From Patescibacteria group bacterium (lineage in GTDB: Bacteria; Patescibacteriota; Patescibacteriia; UBA9934), in the NCBI GenBank assembly GCA_018062825.1, contig JAGORL010000001.1:314758-378757 (forward strand): DNA of 64,000 bases. Direction: 5' to 3'. A program made the translations under genes and the position numbers. This document shows positions 1,914 to 37,487 of this stretch, in pieces. Positions within the stretch are counted from its first letter, which is position 1, and each line of letters begins with the position of its first letter. Under the pieces are notes generated by a model, which searched no databases, had not been told where the DNA came from, and saw nothing but the letters and a program-made list of their open reading frames with translations.

Positions 1914-2366
1914 TTAATCTGCCTGTACAAACACCATCGTTCCTTGATCATCTTGCAAAGTGAGCATGAGTGATCCCTCCTCTGAGATGACGTAGGCAAC
2001 AACGTTGCCAAGTTGCTCGGCGTAGGTTGCTTCTTGTGAGCCTTCGCAGTACATCTTGGTGCTAATAATTTCGCCAAAGCTGAGCGATGCGCCATCCATG
2101 GTGTAGTTGCCGCCCATCGTGTTGCAGTCAGTGCTGCTACCAAAACGACCGTCGGTTTCAAAGGTCAGAACAAAACGCTCTGGCTCGTTTGGTGTAAAGG
2201 CGCCTTCTGCAGCAAGGAGCGTGGTAGTCCATGTCCACGAGGTATCAGTAATAGCGATCATAGAGGTATCCGCTTGCTTCTCATTGTAGATGAAAGCGTT
2301 GAGTGCAAAGAAGCCCAGAAGAACTACCGCAACTACACCAATGAAAACAAGAAATATTTTTTGCAT
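1914..2366 (-). CDS. META-domain (HslJ-like, DUF306) protein with an N-terminal signal anchor.
   Basis: Hydrophobic N-terminus followed by a META-like region (TDGRFGSSTDCNTMGGNYT...). ATG start at 2364-2366; the listed 5'-most start at 2393 is GTG. Confidence 0.55.
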   Translation of the reverse strand: MQKIFLVFIGVVAVVLLGFFALNAFIYNEKQADTSMIAITDTSWTWTTTLLAAEGAFTPNEPERFVLTFETDGRFGSSTDCNTMGGNYTMDGASLSFGEIISTKMYCEGSQEATYAEQLGNVVAYVISEEGSLMLTLQDDQGTMVFVQAD

Positions 2367-2410
2367 AGCGAAAATAAAGAGTACTGCACTCACTATAGTC
2401 TATTAAAGAG

Positions 2411-2446
2411 AAGATCGACACCCCGGGCGCGGGATGTCGATCGTGG
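2411..2446 (-). terminator. Terminator hairpin, copy 1 of a duplicated 31-bp element AAGATCGACACCCCGGGCGCGGGATGTCGAT.
   Basis: GATCGACA/TGTCGATC stem with an inner CCCG/CGGG stem. The minus-strand read is followed by CTTCTCTTTAATA. Identical core recurs at 3197-3227. Confidence 0.65.
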
Positions 2447-2449
2447 TGA

Positions 2450-3067
2450 TCAGGCCTGAACGGCCTGTGCGTGGCTGTCTGCGGGGCGGGAAACCATCGT
2501 GTCCGCCCAGATGATGAACTTCTGGAGCTTGTCGCGCTGATCGGCGACCTCCTCCCGAGATGCGTACCCGAGTACTGGCAGGTATTCTTGCGGACCGACC
2601 AGGATCTGCTTCAGGTTCTCGACCGTATCGCAGATGACAAGGGCTTCTCGCACCTTGTCGATCAGCACGTCGCGCACATTGTCCGTCAGGGGCATGTGCT
2701 GTTGACCGCAGTCCGGGCAGGGCAGCGTGCTCGGGGTCAGACAGAGCTTGTCGCCGAGCTTGAGCAGAGCATCGACCCAGTTCTTCGGCGGGAGCGGATG
2801 GATGTACTCCATGAGTGCCGTGAACGCCTCGTGCGGATCATCGCTGAAGGTGTGGACGCGCATGGCTCGCGGCGCTGCGACCATCTGGTTCGGAACGCCA
2901 TTCGTCACGGTGAACGCTCCGATCACGAGGTCATCCTCGCCGTGAAGGACGGTCCAGTTGCCGTCCTCGAGCTTGGTGCCGATCGGGAGGATGACCGTCC
3001 CTTCCTCGGTGATCTCCACCGTGAGTGAGCGATTGCTGCTCATGATGCGATACGTCGCAAAGCGCAT
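2450..3067 (-). CDS. Hypothetical protein (205 aa), in a GC-rich islet.
   Basis: ATG start with GAGG upstream. ~65% GC against a ~49% background. Has its own terminator. No recognisable family. Confidence 0.5.
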   Translation of the reverse strand: MRFATYRIMSSNRSLTVEITEEGTVILPIGTKLEDGNWTVLHGEDDLVIGAFTVTNGVPNQMVAAPRAMRVHTFSDDPHEAFTALMEYIHPLPPKNWVDALLKLGDKLCLTPSTLPCPDCGQQHMPLTDNVRDVLIDKVREALVICDTVENLKQILVGPQEYLPVLGYASREEVADQRDKLQKFIIWADTMVSRPADSHAQAVQA

Positions 3068-3196
3068 GGGTGTACCTCGTACGTGAAGCTGAAAGCTACT
3101 AAATCAAGCGAACCATTCGCCTAAAACAGCAGTATTTCAACGAGGCAGACTAAACAAAAATCTGAAAAGAGTCAACCTCAACGCCTATAAAAACTA

Positions 3197-3232
3197 AAGA
3201 TCGACACCCCGGGCGCGGGATGTCGATTGTGG
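3197..3232 (-). terminator. Terminator hairpin, copy 2 of the duplicated 31-bp element.
   Basis: Same core as 2411-2441. The minus-strand read is followed by CTTTAGTTTTTATAGG. Confidence 0.65.
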
Positions 3233-3243
3233 CTCGCGGCCTT

Positions 3244-3525
3244 CTAGCCGAGGGCTGCGAGGAAGTCCTCGACCGCCTCGGGGTCGAGCGTGACCTGGAG
3301 CTCCTCCCGCAGCTCGCGGTCGAGGGTGGCGTCGGCGGTCTCGTTCGTGAGGATCGCGAGCTGGGCCTTGCCGCCCTGGACCTCGACCGTGCCGACGCAC
3401 TCGTCGTTGTCGAGGATCTGCCACACCCCGTCTTCGACCGACTGGCCGTGGGGGAACATGGCGGTGGTGCCATGCATCACGATCGTGAGCGTCTGGTCGC
3501 CGAGGGCCGCGAGGAATCCGCGCAT
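3244..3525 (-). CDS. Hypothetical acidic protein (93 aa from the ATG at 3525; the 5'-most start at 3588 is GTG), in a GC-rich islet.
   Basis: GGAGAAG lies 4-5 nt upstream of the ATG at 3525. GC-rich. Followed by terminator copy 2. Confidence 0.45.
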   Translation of the reverse strand: MRGFLAALGDQTLTIVMHGTTAMFPHGQSVEDGVWQILDNDECVGTVEVQGGKAQLAILTNETADATLDRELREELQVTLDPEAVEDFLAALG

Positions 3526-3712
3526 GACTTCTCCTGAAGGGGCGTCGATATGATCGACAGGGGCATCATCTGCGCAAACGTCGATCACCGACGCTAACGC
3601 AAAAGACCCGCTACGATAGCGGAAATACCCAGAAAAGTCAAGCTATTTCTGGAATACTAGCCCCTGTTTACAAAGCGCATCATCGCAGTCTTGCCATGCC
3701 ACAATGCGATTA

Positions 3713-3757
3713 ATGTAGCAATAAGAAGACCCCGTCTGCCTTGCGGCTGACGGGGTC
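3713..3757 (-). terminator. Intrinsic terminator after the beta-propeller gene.
   Basis: GACCCCGTC-(13 nt)-GACGGGGTC 9-bp stem. The minus-strand read is followed by TTCTTATTGC. Confidence 0.6.
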
Positions 3758-3801
3758 AGAGAGATCGGACAACCACGTGAGGTGATCGTCATGTGGTGCG
3801 G

Positions 3802-4971
3802 CTACGGCAGCGGATCGCCGCGGTCGTCCACCCGGATCTCGAAGATGACGAACGGCGACGGGTCCGGCACAGGGGATCCGACGAGCACGTCATCGACAGC
3901 ATGGTTCACCACGTAGGCGCGCTTCTTGTCCGGGTGAAGCGCGATCGTGGACGGCTGCACGAAGGAGACGTTGACGTTCTCCGGCTGAGTGATGCGATCG
4001 ATCTCGTAGGGGTCGAAGTCGCACTCGTTGAGGCCCGAGATGACGCTCACGGAGTTGTCGCCCGCGAGCACCGCGTACAGGTCACCGTTCTGCGCGAACG
4101 CCAGCCCATCGGGCAGGTCATTCAGGCCGTACTCGTACACGATCTCCGGGGTCTCGCCGAGATCGTTCAGTGGCACGCGGTAGATCTTGCCGGTCGCTCC
4201 GGGAGCGCCGGGGAAGGGCACCCCGCCCGTGAACGCGAAGTAAAGGTACTCGCGCTCCGGATCGAGCTTGATGCCGTTCATGCCCAGGCGCCCGCCTCCG
4301 AAGAAGCCGAGCAGCGGGTCCACGATGACCGGCACGGGCTCACCACCACCCGGGGGAACCATGAAGATGATGCCCTGGATGCTGTCCGTCACGTAGAGCT
4401 CGCCCGCCGGGCCGACGACGATCCCGTTCGGGACGGACGGCGGCAGGCCGGGAATGGGCGGCACCTCGATGAGCTGCGGGAAGGGCGTCGACGTGTGCAG
4501 CGACTGGGTCCAGGTGGGCCCGAAGCACGTGTCGACGATCGAGAACTTCACCACACCGAGCTGGGTGCTGTTCACGTACAGGTTGCCATCCGCGTCGAGC
4601 GCGGACTCGCTGAAGGCGTGCTCGAACAGGATGTTCTCGCCGTCGGCCTCGAGCGTGTCGATGAGGTCACCGTCGTTGAGATCGTAGACCCGAACCCAGG
4701 AGGCCGGTAGGCCGGCGGTCGGCGAGGCGGCCGGACCGGTCACGTACAGGAGCTCGCGGTCGTAGTCGACGACCACGCCTTCGGGCCATTCGTAGCCCGC
4801 CGGCATGGTGGCGAAGATCTCCGCCGAGCCGACGTTGCCCTGACCGTTGTTGTGACCACCGCCATGGCCACCACCGTGACCATGACCGTTGTTGTGACCA
4901 CCGGGTGGCCCGCCGTGGGCGAGCGTGGTGGTCGGAATGATGAGTAGAAGCGTGAACAACAGCTGACGCAA
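3802..4971 (-). CDS. Secreted beta-propeller protein (SMP-30/gluconolactonase/LRE-like or NHL-like repeats) with an N-terminal His/Gly-rich tract.
   Basis: Signal peptide MRQLLFTLLLIIPTTTLA. Then HGGPPGGHNNGHGHGGGHGGGHNNG (a putative metal-binding tract). Repeated ...LYVTDS.../...GDLYAV... blade-like motifs. TTG start with AGAGAGG upstream. ~65% GC. Confidence 0.5.
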   Translation of the reverse strand: MRQLLFTLLLIIPTTTLAHGGPPGGHNNGHGHGGGHGGGHNNGQGNVGSAEIFATMPAGYEWPEGVVVDYDRELLYVTGPAASPTAGLPASWVRVYDLNDGDLIDTLEADGENILFEHAFSESALDADGNLYVNSTQLGVVKFSIVDTCFGPTWTQSLHTSTPFPQLIEVPPIPGLPPSVPNGIVVGPAGELYVTDSIQGIIFMVPPGGGEPVPVIVDPLLGFFGGGRLGMNGIKLDPEREYLYFAFTGGVPFPGAPGATGKIYRVPLNDLGETPEIVYEYGLNDLPDGLAFAQNGDLYAVLAGDNSVSVISGLNECDFDPYEIDRITQPENVNVSFVQPSTIALHPDKKRAYVVNHAVDDVLVGSPVPDPSPFVIFEIRVDDRGDPLP

Positions 4972-5062
4972 CTCGAACCTCTCTGAACTAGCATCTATTG
5001 ATGCGCCTCGTTATGAGGCGGCGAATAGTATAGTGTTCAAAAACAAGATAGCCAAACGAGTA

Positions 5063-5590
5063 TTACACACCGGAGCTACTTTCCTTTGAAAGAAGCTGAG
5101 ACTTAATCGCTGATCCCCAGCGATACTGTCCAATCGATCCATCAGCCGGCACAACGCGGTGGCACGGGATAAGAACGGCAATGCGATTAGCGCCAACTGC
5201 GGTACCAACTGCGCGGTATGCGTGCGGCCTGCCAATGTTCTGAGCGATTTGCGCATACGTCCTGCGCTCACCGTACGGAATATGCAGAAGCTCCAACCAA
5301 ACGCTTTTTTGAAAAGCGGTACCGGTAGTAAAAAGGGGAATGCTGCGTTGATCGCCTTTATTCTTCAGTGCATCAAAGGCCACGAGGTGAAGGCGGTGCT
5401 CGCTCGCCACGAGAGCGGACTCGGGAAATAATAAAGATAATTCTCGGGTATGGTCGATATCAGGAATCTGGAAGGCAAGAAAGACAATCGCTCGATCGCT
5501 TGAAGCAATAAAAACCTCACCCTGTGCGGATGAGTAGCTTGCGTAGTACACACGATCAATCACCTCGTGATCATTAAGAAAAGAAGACAT
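5063..5590 (-). CDS. ogt: Methylated-DNA-[protein]-cysteine S-methyltransferase (O6-alkylguanine-DNA alkyltransferase).
   Basis: Active-site motif IPCHRVV (PCHR). The C-terminal HTH-like DNA-binding region is conserved. Start at the ATG at 5588-5590 (MSSFL); the listed 5617 start is TTG. Confidence 0.8.
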   Translation of the reverse strand: MSSFLNDHEVIDRVYYASYSSAQGEVFIASSDRAIVFLAFQIPDIDHTRELSLLFPESALVASEHRLHLVAFDALKNKGDQRSIPLFTTGTAFQKSVWLELLHIPYGERRTYAQIAQNIGRPHAYRAVGTAVGANRIAVLIPCHRVVPADGSIGQYRWGSAIKSQLLSKESSSGV

Positions 5591-5643
5591 AGATAAATAT
5601 AATCTGAGTGTAGGCAAAAAGGCGGAAAGGGGGAAGGGTAGGG

Positions 5644-7714: not shown

Positions 7715-8113
7715 TTAGTGCACAAGGACCGCTGAGAGTTCGATCCGTAGGGTGGTGTAAACGCCGAACGGTAGGTCGAGCAAGGTGACGCCACCATGAG
7801 CGACGCCTCGATGCGTTGCATACTGGATGTACGAAGTGCCGTGCAGCCGGATGCGCCGCTCGTTGCGTTCGATGACACGATGGAGTGCAAGGGCTTCTCG
7901 CAGCTCAGACGCGTGGCCGCGCCAGTTGGTGATCACCTGTCCGCCGAGCCCGGTCGACACAACGCGTCGCTGTAGCGCCGCTTCATTCCGGTCAGGACTC
8001 AGGTAGAAGTCGAGTGCCCAGGGACTGTGATGGGGGAGCATGGGACCGATGAAGTCCGGGAAGGAGTAGTTGTATGCGGCCAGGAGACCGTCGTTGAAAG
8101 GACGTGGTGGCAT
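7715..8113 (-). CDS. Hypothetical protein (132 aa) in a GC-rich monocistronic islet.
   Basis: ATG start with AGGTG upstream. ~62% GC. Bracketed by its own terminator and by the cupin-gene terminator upstream. No family recognised. Confidence 0.5.
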   Translation of the reverse strand: MPPRPFNDGLLAAYNYSFPDFIGPMLPHHSPWALDFYLSPDRNEAALQRRVVSTGLGGQVITNWRGHASELREALALHRVIERNERRIRLHGTSYIQYATHRGVAHGGVTLLDLPFGVYTTLRIELSAVLVH

Positions 8114-13133: not shown

Positions 13134-13730
13134 TTAGCGGGATGGCTTCCTACGCTTAATACCAGTTCTGTGTGGCTGCTTACCGTCGAATAATAGTTTA
13201 AGGGAATCTACGACCGAACCTGCTCCTAGGACAATAATGAGAACGCCGTCTATCTTTAGCTTTTCCTTCAAATCCCAGAAAAGCTCCTCAATCAGCTTTA
13301 CGCGTTTCACTAAATAGTCGGGATCAACCATGATCGGTGTATTTACTGGCCAAGAGTCTTTTTCAATAGTGTTGTGAGCTGTATTGAAATGTCCCACCCT
13401 GTTGTACCGAGCCGTCAAAACCTCTTTCGTAGTTGCTTTAATTTTCAGTATCTTCGCGTGATAGTGAAGACGCTGTTTCTCGGAAGGCAACAATCCGCAA
13501 AGAGTAAAAAGCGACGAGGTTTGATCATCTTGATCGAGAAGGTTACTCAATACGTTTACCGCGTCTCTGCTATAAACGTCTGCCATAGATAAGAGGAAAG
13601 CTCCGTGTTCCTTGGCGATCTTTTCTTTTTCATAGATATAGCTCAATACCCCAATGGTTTCTTTGAGTCTATTCAGGGAATCGTTGATGTGATCGGTTAT
13701 ATCCTTTGGACGGAGCTTAGCCTTCGGCAT
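13134..13730 (-). CDS. Hypothetical protein (198 aa), island cargo; contains a possible HEPN-like Rx5H motif (RYNRVGH).
   Basis: AT-rich ORF divergent from 13780-14910. No family recognised. The HEPN suggestion rests on the short motif only. Confidence 0.45.
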   Translation of the reverse strand: MPKAKLRPKDITDHINDSLNRLKETIGVLSYIYEKEKIAKEHGAFLLSMADVYSRDAVNVLSNLLDQDDQTSSLFTLCGLLPSEKQRLHYHAKILKIKATTKEVLTARYNRVGHFNTAHNTIEKDSWPVNTPIMVDPDYLVKRVKLIEELFWDLKEKLKIDGVLIIVLGAGSVVDSLKLLFDGKQPHRTGIKRRKPSR

Positions 13731-13779
13731 ATCTTCTTACTTTACTATTCTTTACTATATCGGGTAAAGTACGCTCATT

Positions 13780-14910
13780 GTGAGCGAAAATGATTCAGAG
13801 ATTAACTTCTTCATTGAAGATTCAAAGCTCTACACTCTTTGGGTTTATTCACGACCCGATTTTTATCCAAGAGAATATTTTGGAATTGGCGAAATCACTC
13901 CTGCACAATACGACCATAAGGCAATTTTTAACTTTCTTAGAATAAGGCTGAAGATGGCCGATGTTCAGTTCAAAAGCTTTAATGCCTACGGCGATAACGA
14001 CTACTCAAAGATGGCTCTCCCACCCACGGATGCTACGCTTAAGGGATGCGATGATAAGCAGAAAAAAGCTATCCTAGCGGCCTGCAAGAAGTTTCGATCT
14101 GAACCATTCGGGTTAAAAGAGATCGACCTTCTACTTCCTTACTATTACAGCTTGTTTGATTATTTTTACTGGCGACCGTCCTTAACATCTACAGAACTGG
14201 CGAAAATTAAAACTCACATAAACGAGTACATTGATTTGTTTCTGAATACGGAACTCTTCGTTTACAACAGAAACTATTTTATTTTCGAAAAACAAAAACA
14301 GGTATTCATTGAACGATTAAGAAAGATGTCCGCTATCGAAAATTTTGGCTCGAATTTTATTGTTAGCGAAACCGCTAAGGGATATGAAAAGACCGAATCA
14401 CAAAACGGTTTCCTCTTCATTCACACGCTATATGCCCTGCAGAAGCTAAACTATATTAGTGTAATACGATTGTGGCATGAACGAACGGATACAGGACACA
14501 CTTTCCATGCAAACATTGTAATTTTTGATACCTTAATCGAGGAAGTAAATAACAGCTACAAGAAGGACAATCCTAAAAACGTTATAGATAAATTTGATGA
14601 AAAGAAAGGCGTTCTAAAGTTCGCTGAGCAGGAGATAGAGCTTTCAAAGAAGGGCAAGCAGACTGATGCGGTTCTTTTAATGAAAACTCTCCTCAAAACT
14701 GAAGGCGACGACTGGAAACACAACGACGAAATATTAACTGATTGGGGCTATAACGACGATGATCAGAAGGGAGTAGCGAAAAACAAGGTCTATTATGCAG
14801 GCCAAAAGATAAATAATGCCGTGGAACTCAAAACAAAGATAGGCGATTTCATTGAGTGCAATACTTCAAAGGCTCGAATCAATCCCAAATATAGAAAAGT
14901 TGATGAATAA
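13780..14910 (+). CDS. Hypothetical protein (376 aa), island cargo.
   Basis: AT-rich ORF followed by a terminator at 14954-14982. No family recognised. Confidence 0.5.
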   Translation: MSENDSEINFFIEDSKLYTLWVYSRPDFYPREYFGIGEITPAQYDHKAIFNFLRIRLKMADVQFKSFNAYGDNDYSKMALPPTDATLKGCDDKQKKAILAACKKFRSEPFGLKEIDLLLPYYYSLFDYFYWRPSLTSTELAKIKTHINEYIDLFLNTELFVYNRNYFIFEKQKQVFIERLRKMSAIENFGSNFIVSETAKGYEKTESQNGFLFIHTLYALQKLNYISVIRLWHERTDTGHTFHANIVIFDTLIEEVNNSYKKDNPKNVIDKFDEKKGVLKFAEQEIELSKKGKQTDAVLLMKTLLKTEGDDWKHNDEILTDWGYNDDDQKGVAKNKVYYAGQKINNAVELKTKIGDFIECNTSKARINPKYRKVDE

Positions 14911-14953
14911 TATATAAACGTCCATCAACATTTACAAATGCCCTGACATTTAC

Positions 14954-14982
14954 CCTGTGGTCAAACCTCAGGGTTTTTGTTA
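14954..14982 (+). terminator. Intrinsic terminator CCCTG-tggtcaaacct-CAGGG followed by TTTTTGTT.
   Basis: 5-bp stem with a T-tract, 44 nt after the stop of gene 13780-14910. Confidence 0.55.
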
Positions 14983-15121
14983 TGCAGCATTTAACTCAAC
15001 AAAGAGAGCAAGACGTAATATCCGAATCAAAGGATGTTTCTCTCGAAGACGAGCGCAATCTCGTTGATTTCTTTGCATTGCTTTTAGCCGTTGATAAACG
15101 AGTAAATAACAAAGCGAATTT

Positions 15122-16255
15122 ATGATTGATACCGTCTGCCTCCTTATTCCCCTGAACCATGTCGTCTTTCTCGACAAAGCCAATAAAGAGATTCCTGATT
15201 GGGACTTACATTCTAAGACTGAGAACTATCAAAAGTTCGTCAGAAACCCTACAAAAAAGGATAAGGAAAGTGGCCTATATTTTCCACGGATTACACTCTA
15301 TCAAAGACGTTACCAGCGTGAAATCAATGTAAAAATAGAGTTCTCAGCTCCAAAGCTACTGTACGAAAATAATCTTGAAGAGCTAAAGGATTCCGACTTC
15401 GATAAGGTAATTGATCTATTACAGGATCGGCTCAAGCGCATGGGATTAAGGGTCTTCCGTAAGTTCTTAGTTGAAGCCGACGTTTCTTCGATCCATTACT
15501 CCAAAAATATCCTGCTTTCGGATGGCTATACGGCTAGTTATCTGATAGCAGAAATGAGCAAGATTGATCTAAGAAAGAGCTTCGATTTTGCCCGTGCTCG
15601 CTACATCAATGACGGTCAAAGCCTGTGCGCCCATACCTCATCTCACGAGCTAGTCATATACGACAAGGTAGCCGATTTGAATAAGGGCAAGAAAAGGGCA
15701 ATTGACCGAGATCGAACCCCGTATCAAACGAGTCTATTCGCCGACTTGAAGAACGCGAAGAAGCTGATAGAAATCTTGCGGTTTGAAATTCGGCTCGGTA
15801 AAAAAGAGAAAATTAAGAGCCTACTCCTGAAATTAGGTCATCAAAAAAAGGTTGCCTTTGCCGAGATGTTCAATACAAGGCTTAGCCAGCAGGTAGTAAC
15901 CCACTATTGGGAAAAGATTATCAGCGCAAAAACCAACGGTCTATTCATTATTCCACCAACACATAAAGACCTGTTACGAGAGATCTACCGAGTTCAACCA
16001 GAGGTCAAACCTAGCCGCGCGTTCTATCTAGTCGGCTTATCTGCATTAGCAAAGGACGGAAACGGTATACGAGAGCTGAGGAGTATCCTTACAGGCAAGA
16101 CAAACGCAAGGACTTGGTATCGGATAATCAAGGATCATCGTGATTTTTCCAAGGCTATTTCAGCAAGCAAAGTCAGAGATTGGGTTTATCAGATAGATCA
16201 ATCCCTAAAGAAGTATGAGCCACTAACACGTTCCACATACGAAATTGCTGTGTAA
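15122..16255 (+). CDS. Rep_trans-family rolling-circle replication initiation protein.
   Basis: Signature blocks ...SSHELVIYDK... (the RIYDK-like block) and ...EILRFEIRLGKK... (the R.E.EL block), as in pT181 RepC and ICE/phage Rep_trans proteins. Confidence 0.5.
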   Translation: MIDTVCLLIPLNHVVFLDKANKEIPDWDLHSKTENYQKFVRNPTKKDKESGLYFPRITLYQRRYQREINVKIEFSAPKLLYENNLEELKDSDFDKVIDLLQDRLKRMGLRVFRKFLVEADVSSIHYSKNILLSDGYTASYLIAEMSKIDLRKSFDFARARYINDGQSLCAHTSSHELVIYDKVADLNKGKKRAIDRDRTPYQTSLFADLKNAKKLIEILRFEIRLGKKEKIKSLLLKLGHQKKVAFAEMFNTRLSQQVVTHYWEKIISAKTNGLFIIPPTHKDLLREIYRVQPEVKPSRAFYLVGLSALAKDGNGIRELRSILTGKTNARTWYRIIKDHRDFSKAISASKVRDWVYQIDQSLKKYEPLTRSTYEIAV

Positions 16256-16285
16256 AGAAAAGTAAAGTATAATTATAACTACAAT

Positions 16286-16468
16286 ATGCACACGGAAGAA
16301 AGTAAATTCTATACATCTCAAGAACTTTCAAAAGTCTTGAAAGTCAATATCATGACCATTTATCGCTATATTAAGGCTGGCAAGTTACAGGCTTATAAAA
16401 TAGGCAAAGAATATCGAATTGCTGAAACTGAGTTTACAAGGTTTTTGAATGAAGCTAGCACCGAATAA
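16286..16468 (+). CDS. xis: Excisionase-family helix-turn-helix DNA-binding protein (HTH_17 / Xis-like).
   Basis: Classic pattern over 60 aa: YTSQELSKVLKVNIMTIYRYIKAGKLQAYKIGKEYRIAETEFTRFL. Confidence 0.7.
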   Translation: MHTEESKFYTSQELSKVLKVNIMTIYRYIKAGKLQAYKIGKEYRIAETEFTRFLNEASTE

Positions 16469-16471
16469 TCT

Positions 16472-17443
16472 ATGGAGGAAAAACTACGAGCAAAAAACAA
16501 CAGAACAACCTTCGTTAGAAGTGAAGAAGTCTTGGAATTGAAGAAAAAGATAGTATCAGGAGATCAGCTGACAAGCGATATTTATAACAAGACGATCTGG
16601 GGGAGGCTTGAAGACGTTACTGTGAAAATCCCTGAGGGGGTTGTTGATCTCCTATTCATCGATCCGCCGTACAACCTAAATAAGGACTTCGGCAATAATA
16701 AATTCCGTGAACTTTCAGGCGATGACTATCAAGTTGTTTTTGAAAAATGGCTACTATCAATAATGCACACCTTAAAGAAGAACGCCTCGGTGTATGTTTG
16801 TTGCGATTGGAAAAGTTCCCCAATGATCTTTAATGTTTTAGATAAGCATCTCAAAGTACGAAATCGCATTACTTGGGAACGCGAAAAAGGGAGGGGGGCT
16901 TTGAGTAATTGGAAGAATTGCTCAGAGGATATTTGGTTCGCTACAGTCTCTGATGATTATAAATTTAACGTTGAGGCCGTAAAACTAAAGAAAAAAGTCA
17001 TCGCACCATACAAAGAAAACGGTCTAGCAAAAGACTGGGCAGAAGAAAGTGACGGAAAATTTAGATTAACTCATCCTTCGAATCTTTGGACGGACATCAC
17101 TATTCCATTTTGGTCGATGCCAGAAAATACTGACCATCCTACACAAAAACCAGAAAAATTAGTCGCAAAAATACTGCTTGCTTCAACACATAAGGATGAT
17201 GTTGTACTCGATCCCTTTCTGGGATCAGGTACGACATCCGTTGTTGCAAAAAAATTAGGAAGGAAATATATCGGCATTGAAATGAACGAAGAATATTGCT
17301 GTCTCGCAGAAAAACGTATTGCTATGGTTGATAAGAATCCGACTATACAAGGGTATCTAGATGGGGTCTTCTGGGAAAGAAATTCTCTAATTGAACAAAA
17401 AGATTCCAACGGAAGCACGGCCTTTAATGCAACGCTTATATGA
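16472..17443 (+). CDS. Type II DNA methyltransferase, beta class (motif IV DPPY precedes motif I); probably an N6-adenine MTase, N4-cytosine not excluded.
   Basis: DLLFIDPPYN (motif IV) comes first, with DPFLGSGTT (motif I, FxGxG) near the C-terminus. This is the circularly permuted beta order of PF01555-type methylases. Confidence 0.8.
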   Translation: MEEKLRAKNNRTTFVRSEEVLELKKKIVSGDQLTSDIYNKTIWGRLEDVTVKIPEGVVDLLFIDPPYNLNKDFGNNKFRELSGDDYQVVFEKWLLSIMHTLKKNASVYVCCDWKSSPMIFNVLDKHLKVRNRITWEREKGRGALSNWKNCSEDIWFATVSDDYKFNVEAVKLKKKVIAPYKENGLAKDWAEESDGKFRLTHPSNLWTDITIPFWSMPENTDHPTQKPEKLVAKILLASTHKDDVVLDPFLGSGTTSVVAKKLGRKYIGIEMNEEYCCLAEKRIAMVDKNPTIQGYLDGVFWERNSLIEQKDSNGSTAFNATLI

Positions 17444-18603
17444 TCGATGATGAAGTGTTAGATTTGATAGCCTTTCTAAAGGCCAAAGATGGCATAGGCA
17501 ATAAAGCTTCTCTAATGAAGGCTGTGTTGGATCAATTTAGATTAACGAAAGATCGATCTGTTTACTACTCTGAACATCTTGCTATTCGTTTTAGCTCATC
17601 GGGATCAACGAGTTTTTCTAACACCGTACTCTCCCTATCAAATCTCCAGAAATTCGACGAACTTCCATTCTTGGTGTGTCTCGTCACTCCAAATACAAAT
17701 GTTATTTACCTAGCAAACTCAACATTCCTTATAAAAATTAGTCACAGTTCGCAACAATTACGGATCGACAATATCCGTGGAAGCTTCAACGGTTCAGATA
17801 TTTGCAAAGTATTTAATGACCTACCGAACTCACCCGAAAACTTTGAAAAGCTATTTGCCATTCATGAAGAATTGGGCTTTGCTGAGAATCTTCCCCGTCT
17901 CGTTGAAGCGACGACTGGTATTGTTCCTTCAGGGAAGAAGTTTGATGTTTCGAACGAAGGAAAAAAGATGATTTTATCAGCTCCCGAAAGAGCGGTCGAG
18001 TTCATCAACTCAAGTGAATACATCGAGTTAAAGACCCATCTAGACGAGATGGTTGCACGTTACAAAGATGAAATCCTGATTGCAGGATTCATTGAAAACG
18101 TAAATATACGAGGAAGAATAATCGAATACCTTATCGCAGGCGAAGACGAAGAATTACGAGCTACACTAGTTAGTGAACTACGCAAGGAAGGTAGCAAGGT
18201 CTCACGCTTCGCAACGAAAAACGACTTAGGCGATTATGTTCGCATTTTTGACAAATTTCATACCGCAACAGATGTTAAGACAAAAATCATGGTCTTAAAA
18301 TCAAATCCAAAAGCCTACAACATCGATAAAATTCTGCATTTTCTTACGCATGAAAAAAGTGTTTTCATGTTTTATTTCATTGGAATTGAGCCTAACAAGA
18401 TCGTCGCACAAGTGCTGGTTTCTGTGTTCCAAAAAGACCTACTCAGGTCAACCATTCTCTTGAAACATTGGGCTGGCAGAAACTCACGAGGTGTTACTCA
18501 ATTCGAAGGTGAAACTATCCATAAACTAATCCTCTCATCAAATAATGATATCGACCTTAAGGAAAGTAAAAAATTCCTCAGAGAGTTGATTGAGCTGGTT
18601 TGA
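17440..18603 (+). CDS. Putative cognate Type II restriction endonuclease (387 aa, no recognisable motif).
   Basis: The start overlaps the MTase stop (ATGA), which suggests co-transcription. Its size and position fit an R subunit. The sequence itself gives no family assignment. Confidence 0.4.
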   Translation: MIDDEVLDLIAFLKAKDGIGNKASLMKAVLDQFRLTKDRSVYYSEHLAIRFSSSGSTSFSNTVLSLSNLQKFDELPFLVCLVTPNTNVIYLANSTFLIKISHSSQQLRIDNIRGSFNGSDICKVFNDLPNSPENFEKLFAIHEELGFAENLPRLVEATTGIVPSGKKFDVSNEGKKMILSAPERAVEFINSSEYIELKTHLDEMVARYKDEILIAGFIENVNIRGRIIEYLIAGEDEELRATLVSELRKEGSKVSRFATKNDLGDYVRIFDKFHTATDVKTKIMVLKSNPKAYNIDKILHFLTHEKSVFMFYFIGIEPNKIVAQVLVSVFQKDLLRSTILLKHWAGRNSRGVTQFEGETIHKLILSSNNDIDLKESKKFLRELIELV

Positions 18604-18616
18604 ATTGGTCGTCCTT

Positions 18617-20175
18617 ATGAAAGCCGTAATTCTTGCTCGGGTTTCAACTGAAGAGCAGAAGGATGCAGGAAACTCTCTTCCTGCACAGATTGAGCGTATT
18701 CAATCTTACTGCCAAAGAAAAGGATTCGCCGTAGCAGAGGTATTTAGCTTTGATGAAAGCGCATATAAAACTAAACGTGATGAGTTCGATAAGATTTTAG
18801 AGTTCCTAGAAAAGACCACAGAAAAGATTGCAGTTTGTTTCGATAAAGTTGATAGGCTCTCACGCAACGTTTTTGATAAACGTGTTTCCACGCTCTACGA
18901 AAAGGCAGTCAACGATCAGATTGAGCTTCACTTTGTCTCAGACGGACAGATCATCAATAATCAAATGTCGGCCGTAGAAAAGTTTCAGTTCGGCATGAGC
19001 TTGGGATTGGCTAAATACTATTCAGATGCTATCAGCGATAACGTAGTACGGGCATTTGAACAAAAAAGACGTGATGGTGAAATTACTGGTCGCTGTCGGA
19101 TCGGCTACATCAATGCCCTTGACCCAATGGGCAATAAAACTGTCTCCCCCGATCCTGACAGATCGCACTTGGTAATAAAGATTTTCGAGATGTACGGTAC
19201 AGGCAATCACTCAATGAAGACTATTCTTGAAGACCTTACCAAAGCTGGGTTGCGAAGTAGGGATGGTTTTAAGCTCTCGAAAAGCAGTATTGAGAACATC
19301 CTACGGGAACCTTTTTATCACGGGATCGCTCGATCCAAGAAATATAATCAAGACTATCCGCACAAGTACGAACGGTTGATCAGTAAAGAGCTTTTTGACC
19401 GTTGCCAAAAAATCAGACTAACCAGAAAGAAGGAGCCATATAAAGCTCTCTCTAAAGATTTCATTTTCAAAGGCCTACTTCGTTGCCAAAACTGCAATTG
19501 CACGATGACCCCTGAAATCAAAAAGGGACGCTTTATTTACTATTCCTGTACCAACTCCAAGGGACAATGCAAGCGGGTCTATGTGCCAGAGAATCAGCTC
19601 CTAAAGCCCGTATACGACGTTCTGAGCCGTTTGTCTGGTATCTCAGAAGGAATACAGAACCTTCTCGTTACAGAGCTTCGTAAGACCACAGAAGCCGAGG
19701 TAGCCTTTCATCAGGCTCAGCTTGGACGTATTCGAAATGAGCAGGATCAGTTTACTAAGCGAAAGGACGCTTTGCTCGACTACCTTCTCGACCAGAGTAT
19801 TACTAAGGAATTACTAAGGATCAGTATGACAAGAAACTGCAAGAGATCATGGACAGGCTTCAGACCCTCAGCCTTGAATTAGAAGAACATTCACGGGCTG
19901 ACTATGATTATCAAACTACAGTAGCTACGGTACTTTCCCTTGCTCGTCGGGCAAAGGATATTTTCGATAGTTCTGAAAACCACGAAAAGAGAGCCTTTAT
20001 AAACTATCTCATTCAGAACCCAACCGTAGCAGGTAAGGAACTTGTCTTTAACCTCAGAAAGCCTTTTGATTTAGTGCTAAATCTTGCAGATGAACAAAAA
20101 AAGACGGTCAACGTTTCCGCTGATCGTCCTTCTTGGCTCGGGGGGTGGGGATCGAACCCACGGCCAATTGGTTAA
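18617..20175 (+). pseudogene. Large serine recombinase (resolvase/invertase N-domain plus recombinase and zinc-ribbon domains), frameshifted by an 11-bp tandem duplication at 19799-19820. The 3' end overlaps tRNA-Asn.
   Basis: N-terminus AVILARVSTEEQ (catalytic Ser). Central recombinase domain and a Cys-rich motif (CQNCNCTM...C). The reading frame switches to the +2 frame (ORF 19849-20175) exactly at the duplicated ATTACTAAGGA. Deleting one copy restores ...LDQSITKDQYDKKLQEIMDRLQTL... Confidence 0.75.
19799..19820 (+). repeat. Exact 11-bp tandem duplication (ATTACTAAGGA x2) that frameshifts the serine recombinase.
   Basis: Direct reading of the sequence: tATTACTAAGGAATTACTAAGGAtcag. Confidence 0.9.
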
Positions 20176-20208
20176 CAGCCAACTGCTCTGCCGCTGAGCT
20201 ACCCCCGA
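20134..20208 (-). tRNA. tRNA-Asn (anticodon GUU), 75 nt, with CCA encoded.
   Basis: Minus-strand read: UCGGGGG-UA-GCUC-AGCGGCA-GAGC-A-GUUGG-CUGUUAA-CCAAU-UGGCC-GUGGG-UUCGAUC-CCCAC-CCCCCGA-G-CCA. All stems pair. U1-A72 and G73 are as in bacterial tRNA-Asn. Confidence 0.9.
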
Positions 20209-20320
20209 ATATATTGGGTTGAATTGAACGGGGAAATAATACCCACATCCTAAAAAAATGACAAGTCGGTCCGCTATGGGCATGTGGGCAACGGATATAT
20301 GAAGAATGTCCATTATTTCA

Positions 20321-20389: not shown

Positions 20390-20767
20390 ATGAGCAGCAG
20401 CCCTGCACTCCTGCCAGTCGCAAGCGACAAGAGCGGCGACGAACAGTCGGGAGTCACGACTCTCGACTTCCTCCTGAGCATCGACGGCACGAGCGCCGGC
20501 GTTCGTAGGCGTTACGAGAAGGAAGGATTCGGAAGCATCGTGACCACCTGGACGGGCTCCCTCGAAGAGTTCAGTCGGGCGTTCCTCACCGCTGTCAACG
20601 TGGACACCAAGGAGGTGCACATCATCCTCCAGCGCTGCACGTCACAGTACAAGCCGGGAACGATCGAGGGGCGCAGGATGGTCGGCGAAGCCACGTTCAT
20701 CATGTCCAACCGCATGTTCAACGAGGTCTACGACCGCGTCTGCCCGCCTCCCGAGGTCGCACACTGA
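20390..20767 (+). CDS. Hypothetical protein (125 aa) in a GC-rich islet, located across tRNA-Asn from the AT-rich island.
   Basis: Strong promoter, RBS and terminator. ~60% GC. No family recognised. Confidence 0.55.
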   Translation: MSSSPALLPVASDKSGDEQSGVTTLDFLLSIDGTSAGVRRRYEKEGFGSIVTTWTGSLEEFSRAFLTAVNVDTKEVHIILQRCTSQYKPGTIEGRRMVGEATFIMSNRMFNEVYDRVCPPPEVAH

Positions 20768-22087: not shown

Positions 22088-22120
22088 GAGATCCCTCCCT
22101 CGGCCGTAGCCCGGCCACGG
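22088..22120. repeat. REP-like 33-bp hairpin element, copy 1 (TCCCCTCGGCCGTAGCCCGGCCACGGGCGAGGC).
   Basis: ~10-bp imperfect stem CCTCGGCCGT/ACGGGCGAGG. A near-identical copy is at 36593-36625. Confidence 0.55.
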
Positions 22121-22183
22121 GCGAGGCGGCTGTGCCTCGGGATGACAGATACGGGAGAGTCGTGCATGATATTGATAATAGCT

Positions 22184-24460: not shown

Positions 24461-27400
24461 CTACTGCATGAGTCGACCTGGGCCAAGTGGGTCGTAACCG
24501 TACTTCACCTCAATGCCGTCATCGTAGCCATCACCATCTGTGTCACGTTTCCTAGGATCGGTTTGCATCATGAGCTCTGTTTGATCCCAGAGGCCATCGC
24601 CGTCGGTATCAATCTCGAGCATGAATGGTGCGGTACCTGGGCCAAGTGGATCATAGCCACTGCGCACTTCAAGACCGTCATCATAACCGTCATCGTCACT
24701 GTCAGTACTTGTTGGATCAGTACCCATGAGGCGCTCGATAGCGTCACGCAGGCCATCGCCGTCATAGTCGGCATTGAGAAGCGTTGGGTTGAGTCCAGGA
24801 CCAAGCGGATTGTAGCCATTGAGAAGCTCGATCTGGTCATTGTAACCATCGTCATCTGAGTCTGGGTTAGCAAGATCAAGACCAAGGAATGATTCTTCGT
24901 GATCAGCAACACCGTCTTCGTCGTAGTCGGTGGTGATAACGATGCGCTCAGGGAAGGAAAGATCAACGATCTTGTCACTACCAACCGCAAGGTGAGAATC
25001 ATGCCACAAGATGGTGTCTACCTTTGGCTGGCCCTCGTAGTACACAGCCATACCAATCTGGTGGTGCCACGAGGCTTCCATTGGGCGAACCGAGATGGTA
25101 ACGCTCAAGCAAGCACGTGGATCAACGTCGATCACAACGTCATCGTAGTCAAAGTCTGTTCCTTTGTCTTCAATGCCGTAGATCAGTGTTTCTCGCTCCG
25201 TACGAGTAACCGTAGCGTATTCAGAGAAGGCACTACGCTTGGTACCGTCCGGATTAATAATGTACAGGTCGTAGGTGATTGCCTGGTTGAGTGCTGCTCG
25301 GCGATACATGTGCTGCGCTGCGAGGAAATCCTCGTAGCCAGTGATGTCTGTGCCAAACGTGACGTCAAAGGTGTCTTGCGGGAACAGGGTGATCACATAG
25401 TCATACCACTCATCACCAAAGTTCGCTTCTGCGGCTTCCTCAGTTGCAAGCCAGCGCAGGGTGGCGGTTCCGGTATTGGCGCCATCGTCGGTAATAACGT
25501 AGACGCGCGGGCTTTCCGGGAACTTTACAAGAACCGAGTAAGCGCGAGGGAACATGAGTCCACCTGGAGTAGCTGCTGCAATGATTTCATCAGCAACGTA
25601 GGTGAAGGTACCGCAGCCATCTGAGTAACTTAGATAGGATTGCAAGTCAGGGAATGCGCGCAGCGTGCCGTCTTCTGTAATGAAGTACACAGCACTGTCA
25701 TCTTCGGTTCGTACAAACTGTTCGTTGCCATACTCAGGAATTTCTGGATCGGTAGGCGTCTCTGGGTCAGGAGTCACAGGTGAGGAACAGTCGGTAGTGG
25801 TATCTACCGTAATCGTATCGGTAAGTACCGTAGAGGTTGCGCCACTTGTGCTCTTGAACCGCACATACACCGTGCGGGTGCCGTCACCCGTATCAAGAAG
25901 GGTCCAGGGAACTGTCATGGTGTAAATCTTCTTGCCGTCGGTGCCGGTTGGGGTAGGGGCGTCCTCATCCGCCACGAAGGCTGTCCAAGTTGAGCCTGCA
26001 AATGAACTATCGTTTGAGATCGTCACCTCGCTGGCGTTCGAAGCCTTCAGGGTGAGGGTTGCTAGTGGATCAGGCGTACATGGGTCACCAAGGTCAATGA
26101 TAACCGAGGCGTTACTCGTTTGAACCGGAGAAGGTCCACCTCCGCCACCGCCTCCACCTCCGCCACCGCCTGAAGTGTCGTTATCAATAACGCTCACGGC
26201 CTCGTTGCTGATTGAGATGTCGTCATAATCAAGATCTGCTGAGGCGGCGGAATGGGTAAAGATAGTTGCTTCTGGTGAGCTTTCATCTGTTCCGTCGTCA
26301 ACCGCGGTAACTGTCACGGTTTGTGGCGTATCCCAGTTAAGTGCAGTGAAGACAAGCGACGTGTCATCTGCGGTAGCATCGGCATTCTCGGTGATAGTGA
26401 TGGTAACGTCTGCCGTCGGCTCTGTATCAAGAACAATCGTGTAGGTGTCGGTTGCGCCACCCTCAGTCACTTCTGAGGAAAGAGGGGAGACAGTCACTCC
26501 AGGCGTTGGTCCACCACCGGCGGCAGTGAAGTCGATACGTTCAACGACTGGACCGGCGCTAGTCTGGGTGTTGTTGTAAAGCGTAATGGCAATGTCTAGT
26601 GTATTTGTTGTAACAGCAGAGAAGCCATTAGCATGCGACCACTCGGACTCAGTCAGTCCTTCTACAAAAGCGCTATCCATTGGGCTGTTGCCGCTTTCTA
26701 CAGTGCCAAGTGAAATAGCGGCCTGCATGGTGTTGTCAGGTGAAGCAACCCAGATACCGGCATCATAGTAGTACCAATTACCATCAACGCCACCGTGATC
26801 TGCGGCAAGTCGAGAGGCGATCGTTTGCCAGCCGCCATCATGAACGACGAATGAATCGCGATCATCAAATGAGAAGCTGTAGTATGCGGCATTAACCTCA
26901 GCTGATGTGAAGTCAACGACATCCACCATAGAGATGCCGCTCCATGAGCTTACGTCTTCTTGACCAGCATCAGTGGTGACAACGGTGTAATACCTGGCGT
27001 ATGGGGAGTAATCTTCATCGAAGTGAAAAAGCGTCTCGTAAGTGGAATAGTACATGTCTGCTCCGCTGAATTCCGCAGAAAGAACGCCTGAGAACTGATG
27101 CTCGTCAGTAAGGGTGAGGTCGTCTATCCACTGTTCGCCAAGTCCTCCGGCATTCATTGAGGCGGTAAAGACACGTGTATCGTCACTAATGGCGATATCT
27201 GCAAGTCCGCCACCGATAACGGTATTTCCCGTCCAAAAACTCAGATCAAGCGGATCAATGACAAGTCCGTCAGCTAGTTCATCAAGTTCATTGAATATCA
27301 GTACTGCCTCAAAGATTGGATCGTACTCAATCACGTGTTCGTAGGAGAAGTAAAATGGCAGTTCAATGAGCGATGCTTCCACTGTTCCTCCAATCGGAGC

Positions 27401-31079: not shown

Positions 31080-32024
31080 TTATTGCTCGCACTCGGTAAA
31101 GGCAGGTGTAAATTCAGCCGATGTGATATTTGTCCCGATTAGTACTAAATCACTGCGTTTTTCTTCATCTTCACGCCAAGGTCGATCAGGCAGAAGTTCA
31201 AAATCAAACTGCACACCTTGAAAAACAAACCGTTCAGCTCGATCAGCAATGAAGAAAACGCCCTTATACCGTAAGAGCCGATCACCATTAGCGACCAGGT
31301 GCTCGCCGATAAACCGAGATACCTTCGCTAGCTCAAGTGGCTTGGTGGTTTTCAAGTGAACAGAGGTGATGTCGCTGTGCTGGTGACCATGGCCCGTGAG
31401 TTTGGCGTGCGGGCGGTTTTCGAGCGCCGGTAGATCAGCGTCAAGAAGAATGGCGGGATCAATCGCGCCACGCACCGCCTCGGCGACTACGGCTGCGGGA
31501 TTAAGTTCCGCAACAAGTTCGCGAACGGTTGCGGCGGGGGAGGCATTCGGTGCATCAAGCTTGGTAATAATCACAACGTCGGCGGTTGCGATCTGTTGTT
31601 CAGCTTCAACCGTATCCAAAAGTCGCTGCGCAATCGTTGTGGCGTCTACAAGAGTAACAATGGCATCGAGTTGAAAGTGTTTCTCTAAACTCGGTCGATT
31701 TAAAAATGCCTTAGCAAGCGGCAGGGGATCAGCTAGACCGGTTGTTTCAATGATAACGCGTTCAAAGTCTTTATTGCTCGCCATGAGTGTCGCCATCGCT
31801 TGGGCAACGTCACCCATAGCTGCGCAGCATACGGCGCCACCACTGATTTCAACCATGCCATTTTGAGCGCCATCAAGAAGGGCGCCATCAATGCCGGCAT
31901 CACCAAACTCATTCACTACAACCGCAAACTTTCGCCCGGCGTTCTCTTTGAGGAGGCGATTGAGAAGAGTTGTTTTTCCAGCTCCGAGAAAGCCAGTGAG
32001 AATTGTGACGGGAATGCGTTTCAC
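31080..32024 (-). CDS. COG0523 (CobW/YjiA/ZigA-like) G3E-family GTPase metallochaperone.
   Basis: P-loop [16 protein letters not shown] Cys cluster ([11 protein letters not shown]) in the CxCC position. C-terminal CobW_C-like domain. Confidence 0.7.
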
Positions 32025-32057
32025 AGCTTTAATCTTTTAACTTTAATCTTGAATCAC

Positions 32058-33830: not shown

Positions 33831-33936
33831 GATGGGGGAGTGTAGCAAGATCTTTACAAAGAGCCAAAAAAACATTAGTATACTGAGTTAAATCGCCTAC
33901 AATCCCTGTTGGCTGATTTGAACACTGGAGGAATCA

Positions 33937-34466
33937 TGGAGTTCTGGGTCATCGCTGCCGCGATCGCTACGATGGGCCTCGTGCTTGTCGTGTCGATCAC
34001 GATCGCTGCCGCCGCACTCATGTTCCTCTGGCGGCGGTTCACGGAAGGTGTCATGAGGGGTTTTGGCCTGGCGTACATGCCAATGCGGCAAGATTCCCCA
34101 CAGGAGCGAGCCTCGGCTCGGCTCGGTGAGGTGATGATTCCGCTGCGGCAAGAGTCTGCTGCGCCACGCCCAAGGACGGTGTCCCGTCTGGCTGGTGATC
34201 ACAAGCCTGCGCGCCCCCGGCTTGTGCCACAGGCGGTGGACGAAGACCGCACGAAGACGGTCGCCTTCTCACGCTACAACGCCGAAGACGACCAGGACAC
34301 CGAGAGCGACGAAGGTGGCCCGCGCAGCTGGAAGGCTGACGCGAACGACGGCCGTTCCAACATCTCGCTTGAAGGGGACATCACGCCCAGGCCCGCAGCC
34401 GGGCGCAAGGTGCTCCCGTTCACGCCCCCGACGAACTCCTTCCACGACCTGTTCCGGAGGAAGTGA
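33937..34466 (+). CDS. Hypothetical membrane-anchored protein (176 aa) in a GC-rich islet.
   Basis: GGAGG RBS 5 nt before the ATG. N-terminal TM helix followed by a low-complexity tail. Terminator at 34494-34530. Confidence 0.45.
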
Positions 34467-34493
34467 TTGCATTGCCCGCGCCCGGGAGATGCC

Positions 34494-34530
34494 AGGCCCC
34501 TCGTACTCAAGCGAGGGGTTTATTGTTTCT
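34494..34530 (+). terminator. Intrinsic terminator GCCCCTCG-tactcaag-CGAGGGG followed by TTTATTGTTTCT.
   Basis: Read directly from the sequence. Confidence 0.65.
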
Positions 34531-34585
34531 ATCGTGCACTTTACTCTTTTAACGTTACTCTTTAATCTACCCGCGGAGGTGCCCC

Positions 34586-36585: not shown

Positions 36586-36592
36586 CTCCCCT

Positions 36593-36625
36593 CGGCCGTA
36601 GCCCAGCCACGGGCGAGGCCTACTT
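36593..36625. repeat. REP-like 33-bp hairpin element, copy 2.
   Basis: TCCCCTCGGCCGTAGCCCAGCCACGGGCGAGGC, 1 mismatch from copy 1 at 22088-22120. Confidence 0.55.
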
Positions 36626-37462: not shown

Positions 37463-37487
37463 TTTACTTTAATACCTTCACCTCAAA

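Follow-up and report, generated by a model that had tools for sequence, protein, structure and literature searches.

Organization and Composition of the Locus

We analyzed a 64-kb window of DNA (64,000 nt of contig JAGORL010000001.1) from the metagenome-assembled genome (MAG) of a member of the Patescibacteria, or Candidate Phyla Radiation (CPR), with a GC content of about 50%. Three GC-rich open reading frames (ORFs) follow one another on the minus strand of this window (2450–3067, 205 aa; 3244–3525, 93 aa; 3802–4971, 389 aa), each with a hairpin at its 3′ end; the hairpins of the two smaller genes share a 31-nt sequence, and the largest gene encodes a beta-propeller. Three related contigs proved informative about this islet, namely L011, a 960-bp metagenomic contig (JGI 3300055001), L012 (Logan, SRR25896850), and L002, also a Logan contig. 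The features of the islet are the following.

2411–2446, minus strand: terminator-like hairpin, copy 1 (stem 2413–2442), 3′ of the 205-aa gene; right-hand direct repeat of a 786-bp unit
2450–3067, minus strand: gene for a near-orphan protein of 205 aa, with a small N-terminal beta domain, a helical C-terminal part and a CPDC motif (ORF; AlphaFold2, AF2)
3068–3196, minus strand: spacer, 41% GC, with a weak promoter-like TTGACT(3175–3170)-17-TAGTCT and a GAGG ribosome-binding site, serving the 205-aa gene
3197–3232, minus strand: terminator-like hairpin, copy 2 (stem 3200–3227), 3′ of the 93-aa gene; left-hand direct repeat of the 786-bp unit
3244–3525, minus strand: gene for a near-orphan protein of 93 aa, an apparent paralog of the N-terminal domain of the 205-aa protein (ORF, alignment)
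3613–3641, minus strand: promoter-like TTGACT-17-TATCGT upstream of the 93-aa gene (promoter scan), its surroundings conserved in L011 and L012
3666–5089, minus strand: segment replaced by a 40-nt filler in L011, comprising the propeller unit together with the final MGMT codons
3728–3757, minus strand: terminator-like hairpin of the propeller gene, unlike the duplicated pair in sequence, with one change in L012
3802–4971, minus strand: gene for a 389-aa six-bladed SGL/NHL-type beta-propeller with an N-terminal hydrophobic leader (Pfam, AF2, Foldseek, PDB profiles)
4843–4917, minus strand: His/Gly-rich low-complexity tract HGGPPGGHNNGHGHGGGHGGGHNNG, aa 19–43 of the propeller protein, after the leader (sequence)
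5027–5055, minus strand: promoter-like TTGGCT-17-TATACT upstream of the propeller gene (promoter scan), with a small leader hairpin and then a GAGAGG ribosome-binding site downstream

The compositional anomaly of the three genes is real, and the GC-richness is confined to their coding parts. The coding sequences contain 61.7% (205-aa gene), 69.1% (93-aa gene) and 65.9% GC (propeller gene), compared with 41–52% in the spacers between them. The GC content at third codon positions (GC3) is 0.81, 0.87 and 0.87, respectively, against 0.49 ± 0.05 in ordinary genes of the window (z = 5.8–6.9), and the three genes also have raised GC at first positions (GC1) and low lysine. A preliminary description of this DNA had put the islet at ~65% GC; the anomaly holds, although the figure does not, the interval 2400–4990 having 62.3% GC and the rest of the window 49%.

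The 93-aa ORF would extend to 114 aa if its start were the GTG at 3588. The promoter-like site of the 205-aa gene was read from the sequence and lies below the scan threshold, and a smaller hairpin (3768–3790) precedes the terminator-like hairpin of the propeller gene. In each of the three same-strand units, an AT-rich promoter-like region with a ribosome-binding site precedes the GC-rich ORF, which is followed by a GC-rich hairpin that would serve as terminator. Antisense ORFs on the plus strand (2471–3028 and 3793–4710) were treated as by-products of the high GC content. Mutagenesis of the type caused by diversity-generating retroelements was considered and dropped.

Duplicated Hairpins and Strain Variability

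The 31-mer AAGATCGACACCCCGGGCGCGGGATGTCGAT occurs exactly at 2411–2441 and 3197–3227, its two copies in the window, and none of 100 shuffles matched this. The repeat reaches 36 nt with one mismatch (2411–2446 and 3197–3232), and its copies lie 786 bp apart from start to start. On the minus strand each 31-nt copy folds into a hairpin of 12–13 bp with one G·U pair; the 61-nt segment holding copy 1 has a folding energy of −23.4 kcal/mol (z = −4.9). Because the G·U pair turns into an A–C mismatch on the other strand, the hairpin structure is strand-specific at the RNA level. The stems start 7 and 16 nt past the stop codons, and the tails CUUCUCUUUAAU and CUUUAGUUUUUAU are U-rich, interrupted rather than a clean U run, and pass the scan rule of at least five T in eight. 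Both copies were indeed flagged as terminator-like in the terminator scan, and presumably they act as the intrinsic terminators of the 93-aa and 205-aa units. The identity of the two hairpins, as first reported, is therefore exact, and the terminator assigned at that stage to each of the three genes corresponds to a terminator-like hairpin.

Alignment with L011 reveals a different arrangement of the locus. The first 304 nt of L011 are the MGMT gene, 99.7% identical to window positions 5393–5090; past the 40-nt filler follows the 93-aa unit, 96.2% identical to window 3665–3197, and then a single hairpin that leads into sequence following window copy 1 (2457–2353, 92.5%). Hairpin copy 2 is base-for-base the same in L011, and the junction of copy 1 with its downstream DNA matches L011. 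It follows from this alignment that L011 is without the propeller unit (3666–5089) and without exactly the 786-bp unit bounded by the hairpins. In L012, which represents the same locus, MGMT, the propeller and the 93-aa gene are 92–95% identical to the window; L002 matches the window at 100% and breaks off within the repeat.

The divergence between strains is mosaic. Between the window and L012, synonymous divergence (dS) is 0.37 in MGMT (5063–5617) versus 0.07 in the adjacent propeller gene (3802–4971), a five-fold contrast that argues for a recombination boundary between them, and the non-coding flanks and spacers are ~7% different, as counted by eye. Between the window and L011, it is MGMT that is nearly identical and the 93-aa unit that differs more. 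Together, these observations suggest that the locus is a recombination hotspot where gene-sized units are swapped, with the hairpins as the junctions of one such event. The 786-bp unit, which contains the 205-aa gene, would have been gained or lost as a block at or between the hairpins, whether by recombination or by slippage during replication, and this would account for hairpins that are base-identical despite the highly diverged genes.

Two further switches were seen in L011. The gene after the hairpin leaves META after its first four codons, following a shared ATGCA(G/A)AAAAT (window 2353–2366, L011 858–872), and continues as a different gene that we take to be PhnB/VOC-like. The C-terminal tail of MGMT also differs, ending in …SQLLTIEQVSPASTTSF in L011 versus …SQLLSKESSSGV in the window (window 5063–5104, L011 290–346). 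These switches point to recombination breakpoints at gene ends.

A hairpin that itself served as a recombination site or small mobile element (akin to repetitive extragenic palindromic (REP) sequences, miniature inverted-repeat transposable elements (MITEs) or attC sites), at which a dedicated recombinase or transposase inserted the 205-aa cassette, would also explain why direct repeats exactly flank a gene-sized unit missing in a relative, why they are base-identical though the upstream genes are deeply diverged, and why the single mismatch is on the 5′ side, as a crossover within the hairpin predicts. We nevertheless regard such an element as improbable. Two copies are known, and a degenerate hairpin pattern had no further copies in GTDB representative genomes, JGI metagenome contigs or IMG/VR, although these scans were of low power and also missed the known copies in the source genome and in L011. 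No integron integrase or transposase is encoded nearby, the serine recombinase of the window being 13 kb off in a separate low-GC element. Furthermore, the hairpin is perfect, has 31 nt and, judged by reading its sequence, shows neither R/L boxes nor a GTTRRRY core nor extrahelical bases. Promoter-like sites within the units set them apart from integron cassettes, and the RNA-level strand specificity given by the G·U pair is terminator-like. The mobile terminator or REP-like cassette envisaged earlier is thus not borne out, and a REP-like or otherwise dispersed repeat family for the 31-mer is unsupported.

The repeat length coincides with a common k-mer size, and L002 ends exactly within the repeat, which could indicate that contigs of different organisms had been mis-joined at a shared k-mer. 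We consider an assembly artefact of this kind very improbable indeed, since the order MGMT-propeller-93-aa gene was assembled independently in L002 (100%) and L012 (92–95%), the 205-aa protein is also found on a separate 2.3-kb NCBI contig, single GC-rich genes with sharp boundaries recur in eight independent assemblies, and the repeat runs on to 36 nt with a mismatch.

The 205-aa and 93-aa Proteins

Identical copies of the 205-aa and 93-aa proteins are recorded for the source MAG as KBC55_01680 and KBC55_01685 (MBP9827842 and MBP9827843), and neither gave anything above noise in Pfam, NCBIfam, PADLOC or PHROGs. A search of 5.8 billion proteins returned only the proteins themselves and one 88% relative of the 93-aa protein. 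In an exhaustive HMMER search of 1.8 billion representatives, the 205-aa protein had one genuine homolog, P0040, alike over the full length (27–30% identity), besides three false positives among repeat proteins; relatives of the 205-aa protein were absent from IMG/VR, and a profile of the 205/93-aa family found none in JGI contigs. P0040 is encoded by a singleton gene in a 47% GC contig of another genome, has a GC3 of 0.95, and has a different 3′ end without this hairpin. The AF2 model of the 205-aa protein (predicted local distance difference test score, pLDDT, 68) has a small beta domain followed by helices and no Foldseek match in the PDB.

Over their ~50 N-terminal residues, both the 205-aa protein and P0040 can be aligned with the 93-aa protein at 30–40% identity (pairwise E 1e-4 to 5e-4), and by this alignment the 93-aa and 205-aa proteins are evidently distant paralogs with a common N-terminal domain of ~50 aa. 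The ratio of nonsynonymous to synonymous substitution rates (dN/dS) of the 93-aa gene is 0.7–1.0 among three strains, corresponding to either diversifying or relaxed selection.

This paralogy raises the possibility that an ancient tandem duplication of a gene plus its terminator gave rise to the 93-aa and 205-aa genes, that short-tract conversion has kept the hairpins identical, and that L011 reflects a secondary deletion by unequal crossing-over. The two genes are adjacent, on the same strand, with a common N-terminal domain and similar TTGACT-type upstream sites, and weak similarity between the two copies runs ~25 nt past the hairpin. Moreover, gene-plus-terminator units do duplicate in this genome, as indicated by a second paralog pair (48096–48938 and 55027–55761, 44% aa identity) that has kept 88%-identical TTCG-loop terminators (48957–48984 and 55818–55845) with a compensatory stem change, CAGCC..GGCTG versus CAACC..GGTTG. 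We still judge this scenario unlikely. The 205-aa architecture predates the locus, being present in the P0040 singleton; zero differences in the 31-nt core beside flanks that are ~35% diverged would need very efficient conversion; and the terminators of the other paralog pair show ordinary drift, not identity. Nor are the identical hairpins the remnant of the recent duplication that they first suggested, as the two proteins share just the ~50-aa domain and the 205-aa architecture occurs elsewhere without this hairpin.

The Propeller Protein

The product of the largest gene is a six-bladed propeller. In Pfam, NHL scores above its cut-off (26.3 bits, cut-off 20), while SGL (19.1, cut-off 26.3) and Arylesterase (19.2, cut-off 21.3) stay below theirs. 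An AF2 model built on 28 homologs (pLDDT 87.9, predicted template modeling score 0.85) is disordered in residues 1–43 and shows a six-bladed strand pattern in the remainder. Foldseek against the PDB matched it to the Deinococcus radiodurans SodC propeller, squid DFPase, Drp35, SMP30 and a beta-propeller lactonase (E 1e-10 to 1e-9, template modeling (TM) scores 0.53–0.60), in agreement with a PDB profile search that found Drp35 (E 6e-12), DFPase and lactonase. The lactonase-type propeller expected from the sequence, as well as the hydrophobic N-terminus and His/Gly tract ahead of it, are accordingly all found.

The database search returned 29 homologs of the propeller. All homologs begin with a hydrophobic leader, and judging from these N-termini the propeller is probably Sec-exported. 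A PEG...PNG...NGI...PDG pattern is conserved, with E64, N182, N232 and D288 invariant or nearly so among homologs. This pattern may correspond to the metal-ligand set of SGL enzymes. The protein probably acts outside the cell as a metal-dependent hydrolase or lactonase, or as a ligand-binding protein. The His/Gly tract holds a 42-nt in-frame direct repeat (4833–4861 and 4875–4903), is 14 aa shorter in strain L012, and is represented in other orthologs by short GHG/GYG motifs only; it may be a variable low-complexity linker, possibly metal-binding. The dN/dS of 0.17 against L012 indicates that the propeller gene is functional and under purifying selection.

Phylogenetically, the protein is a new small branch, centered on Patescibacteria, of the SGL/NHL propeller superfamily. 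Its ten closest homologs (50–94% identity) form one Patescibacteria clade with a sister clade of 33–38% homologs, one of which is native to a 70% GC genome. A scan of GTDB with a propeller profile returned L013 (= L003), L014 (in one protein cluster with P0010) and a 27% match in Nocardia, and IMG/VR contained no propeller relatives.

The region upstream of the propeller orthologs has a common layout (window 4972–5062; L001, L003, L005, L008, L009, L010), consisting of TTGAC-17-TATAAC/TATACT, a short leader hairpin and a ribosome-binding site. The stems of the leader hairpin vary in sequence among orthologs, with four predicted pairs changed on both sides, and the layout is kept in differing contexts.

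Age of the GC-Richness

The contig context could be read for seven of the ten closest homologs, P0003, P0005 and P0006 not being covered, and the ortholog set comprises L001, L003/L004, L005, L008, L009, L010 and L012 (eight other contigs, seven further genomes). In all eight contigs the propeller gene has a GC3 of 0.85–0.94 compared with 0.45–0.65 in its neighbors, and its third-position usage is near constant (A3 ≤0.05, C3 ~0.53, G3 ~0.36). Three syntenic pairs allow the divergence of the propeller to be compared with that of its flanks.

L001 and L003: propeller aa identity 61%; flanks 79–91%
L005 and L008: propeller aa identity 78%; flanks 84–90%
Window and L009: propeller aa identity 54%; flanking DUF2914 gene (same strand) 54%

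In the last pair, GC3 is 0.87 and 0.94 for the propeller and 0.50 and 0.45 for DUF2914. Four-fold sites are near the random expectation, and hence near saturation, in propellers and flanks alike. From a dN/dS of ~0.17 together with aa identities of 53–63%, we infer several synonymous substitutions per site. At such divergence, neutral positions should already have reached the equilibrium of the genome, which the GC3 of the propeller has not.

A recent acquisition of the three genes as one block from a high-GC donor, for instance an actinobacterium, would explain their GC3 of 0.81–0.87, raised GC1 and low lysine as an unameliorated donor signature. Indeed, the codon usage is almost that of the homolog native to a 70% GC genome, the units are missing from the related contig L011, the AT bias of recent substitutions is consistent with ongoing amelioration, and for small proteins without relatives elsewhere an unsampled donor is conceivable. 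However, no donor-like sequence was found. The ten closest propellers are one clade, and every readable contig among them is of Patescibacteria type with ~50% GC, some of them syntenic; the orthologs have kept their GC3 at identities which imply that synonymous sites have changed several times over; the three genes do not form a single block, having their own AT-rich promoter regions and separate gain and loss; and P0040 repeats the single-gene anomaly in another genome. Of the marks of a recently acquired island, the composition and the absence from L011 are present here, and closest relatives in a foreign lineage are not. The preliminary description had favored a high-GC donor and had named, as the finding that would speak against it, best matches from the same lineage in syntenic context, which is what the propeller has (L012 at the same locus, L009 beside DUF2914). 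The GC-richness of the propeller is thus an old, lineage-wide feature, and a recent high-GC donor is not supported; we hold it to be rather unlikely for the islet. An ancient origin from a high-GC lineage is possible; the sister clade includes the homolog in a 70% GC genome.

Other general causes were also considered. The polarized changes in the 93-aa gene along the window and L011 branches are AT-biased, with eight from strong to weak bases and two from weak to strong. A GC-biased mutational equilibrium is unlikely given this AT bias of recent changes, and GC-biased gene conversion is not likely to be the only cause, given that spacers within the same recombining units have 41–52% GC. Furthermore, AT-rich promoter and leader regions accompany the gene in different genomic surroundings, which argues against regional GC-biased gene conversion and against a simple donor composition.

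The single-gene anomaly recurs outside the islet. Further genes with a GC3 of 0.69–0.83 in a background of ~0.49 lie at 7715–8113, 20390–20767, 33909–35353, 42369–43502 and 48096–48938, most of them without a Pfam match and one a HAD-like hydrolase; about six genes of the window other than the three of the islet have a GC3 of at least 0.69. These scattered genes suggest that the GC-rich single-gene pattern is genome-wide and reaches beyond the islet.

The gene directly downstream of the propeller in L005 (7266–8240) and L008 (6346–7257) has a GC3 of 0.68–0.69 and is 30% identical between the two, with flanks at 84–90%; it is either extremely fast-evolving or replaced. The GC-rich genes of L009 were examined as homologs of the small proteins of the window and are not homologous.

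Other Features of the Window

The first 13 kb of the window consist of small accessory genes: a kinase-domain ORF at the window edge, DUF2914, META, MGMT, a Branch glycosyltransferase, a cupin, hemerythrin, MerR-TipAS and a GDSL lipase. There are no mobility genes and no tRNA at the borders of the islet. Among its annotated ORFs, the window has a single recombinase, a large serine recombinase (18590–19882) 13 kb away. It lies within a separate low-GC block (38–43%, 13700–20210) that also contains two ~376-aa ORFs without assignment, an N6/N4 DNA methylase (16472–17443) and a 387-aa ORF, and that ends beside tRNA-Asn (20134–20208). This block has the appearance of an integrated element with a restriction-modification system. 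A giant ORF of 2183 aa (24461–31012), whose single Pfam match is a bacterial TSP3 repeat near the C-terminus, probably encodes a surface protein, to judge from that match.

Two other kinds of repeat were noted. Another GC-rich 31-nt repeat, CCCTCGGCCGTAGCCCGGCCACGGGCGAGGC, alike in 30 of 31 nt, is found at the distant intergenic sites 22097–22127 and 36589–36619. A family of intergenic repeats is made of CTTTAA(T/C) units at ~14 nt spacing, for example TCTTTAACACTTTTTACTTTAATAC, often beside terminator hairpins (32024–32055, 34536–34567, 37451–37485, 46370–46401, 49049–49094, 49463–49498 and 51963–51997), and may be regulatory or promoter-related.

Discussion

Taken as a whole, the evidence makes it fairly probable that this is a strain-variable accessory locus of three autonomous units, in which the duplicated hairpins are terminators bounding a 786-bp indel and the GC-richness is long-standing. 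The latter would be an attribute of these gene families in Patescibacteria, with any transfer from a high-GC source being ancient. A survey found most horizontal gene transfer (HGT) in Patescibacteria to be intra-phylum (PMC12455944), which fits units circulating within the lineage. Our literature search on HGT in Patescibacteria returned general surveys and no description of GC-rich genes that do not ameliorate.

Several points weigh against this reading. The AT-biased changes in the 93-aa gene fit slow decay as well as they fit mutation-selection balance, and with a dN/dS of 0.7–1.0 that gene could be decaying rather than functional. L011 might still be a strain-mosaic or repeat-collapsed assembly, and the 786-bp event can be either an insertion or a deletion. 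The count of two hairpin copies refers to the 64 kb of the window, out of a source contig of 406 kb, and the persistence of GC3 was seen in one family, across the eight other contigs, and in one further pair.

More tentatively, a subset of single-gene accessory units in these genomes might be held at an actinobacterial type of codon usage (GC3 ~0.9, A3 <0.05) by a long-term process specific to coding sequence, so that they never ameliorate, the hairpin being one swap boundary among such units. We see this as a possibility with the odds against it. The maintaining process could be selection at synonymous sites acting on mRNA or translation; in an extreme version, the GC-rich genes would be adapted to being expressed in, or exchanged with, a host of high GC content.

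The strain-variable accessory locus is in itself ordinary; what is unusual is that single, self-contained units have kept a codon usage of foreign type throughout the lineage. Atypical GC content is routinely taken as proof of recent HGT and dated by amelioration, and the propeller family runs counter to this, having kept a foreign-looking codon usage beside normal-GC neighbors of equal divergence and with AT-rich promoters. If this were confirmed genome-wide, composition-based calls of HGT in CPR genomes would be systematically misleading, and some force would be acting on the synonymous sites of particular, mostly orphan, strain-variable genes in bacteria whose relations with their hosts are still little known. 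The locus also offers a concrete, small-scale case of gene gain or loss at terminator hairpins.

Comparison with Known Systems

The propeller has the same six-bladed fold as the SGL/NHL propellers of known structure (DFPase 1e1a, Drp35 2dg0, SMP30 3g4e, Rhodopseudomonas palustris RPA3624 8djf and SodC 9m59; Foldseek probability 1.0), to which it is only 12–21% identical. Unlike these solved proteins, it has a hydrophobic leader, a variable His/Gly linker and a small family of its own.

In its sharp compositional contrast, its accessory or orphan genes and their presence or absence in close strains, the locus is like the islets of Lawrence and Ochman. It differs from them in having no mobility genes or tRNA at its borders and in consisting of single-gene units of which only the coding part is GC-rich. 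Furthermore, its orthologs keep a foreign codon usage despite near-saturated synonymous divergence, without amelioration.

The units recall integron cassettes in their single orientation, the hairpin at their end, and the bracketing of one unit by near-identical copies. By sequence reading only, with no attC model applied, the hairpin is nonetheless unlike attC sites (57–141 nt, with R″/L″/L′/R′ boxes), being 31 nt long, perfect and boxless. Integron cassettes are promoterless, whereas the units described here have promoter-like sites, and no IntI is found among the annotated ORFs of the window.

As GC-rich extragenic palindromes just past stop codons, the hairpins resemble REP sequences and bacterial interspersed mosaic elements (BIMEs), from which they differ in that they are two copies, arranged as direct repeats that bound an indel, with no dispersed family detected in the window or in the low-power scans. 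With intrinsic terminators, finally, they share a stable GC-rich stem-loop placed just downstream of the stop codon.

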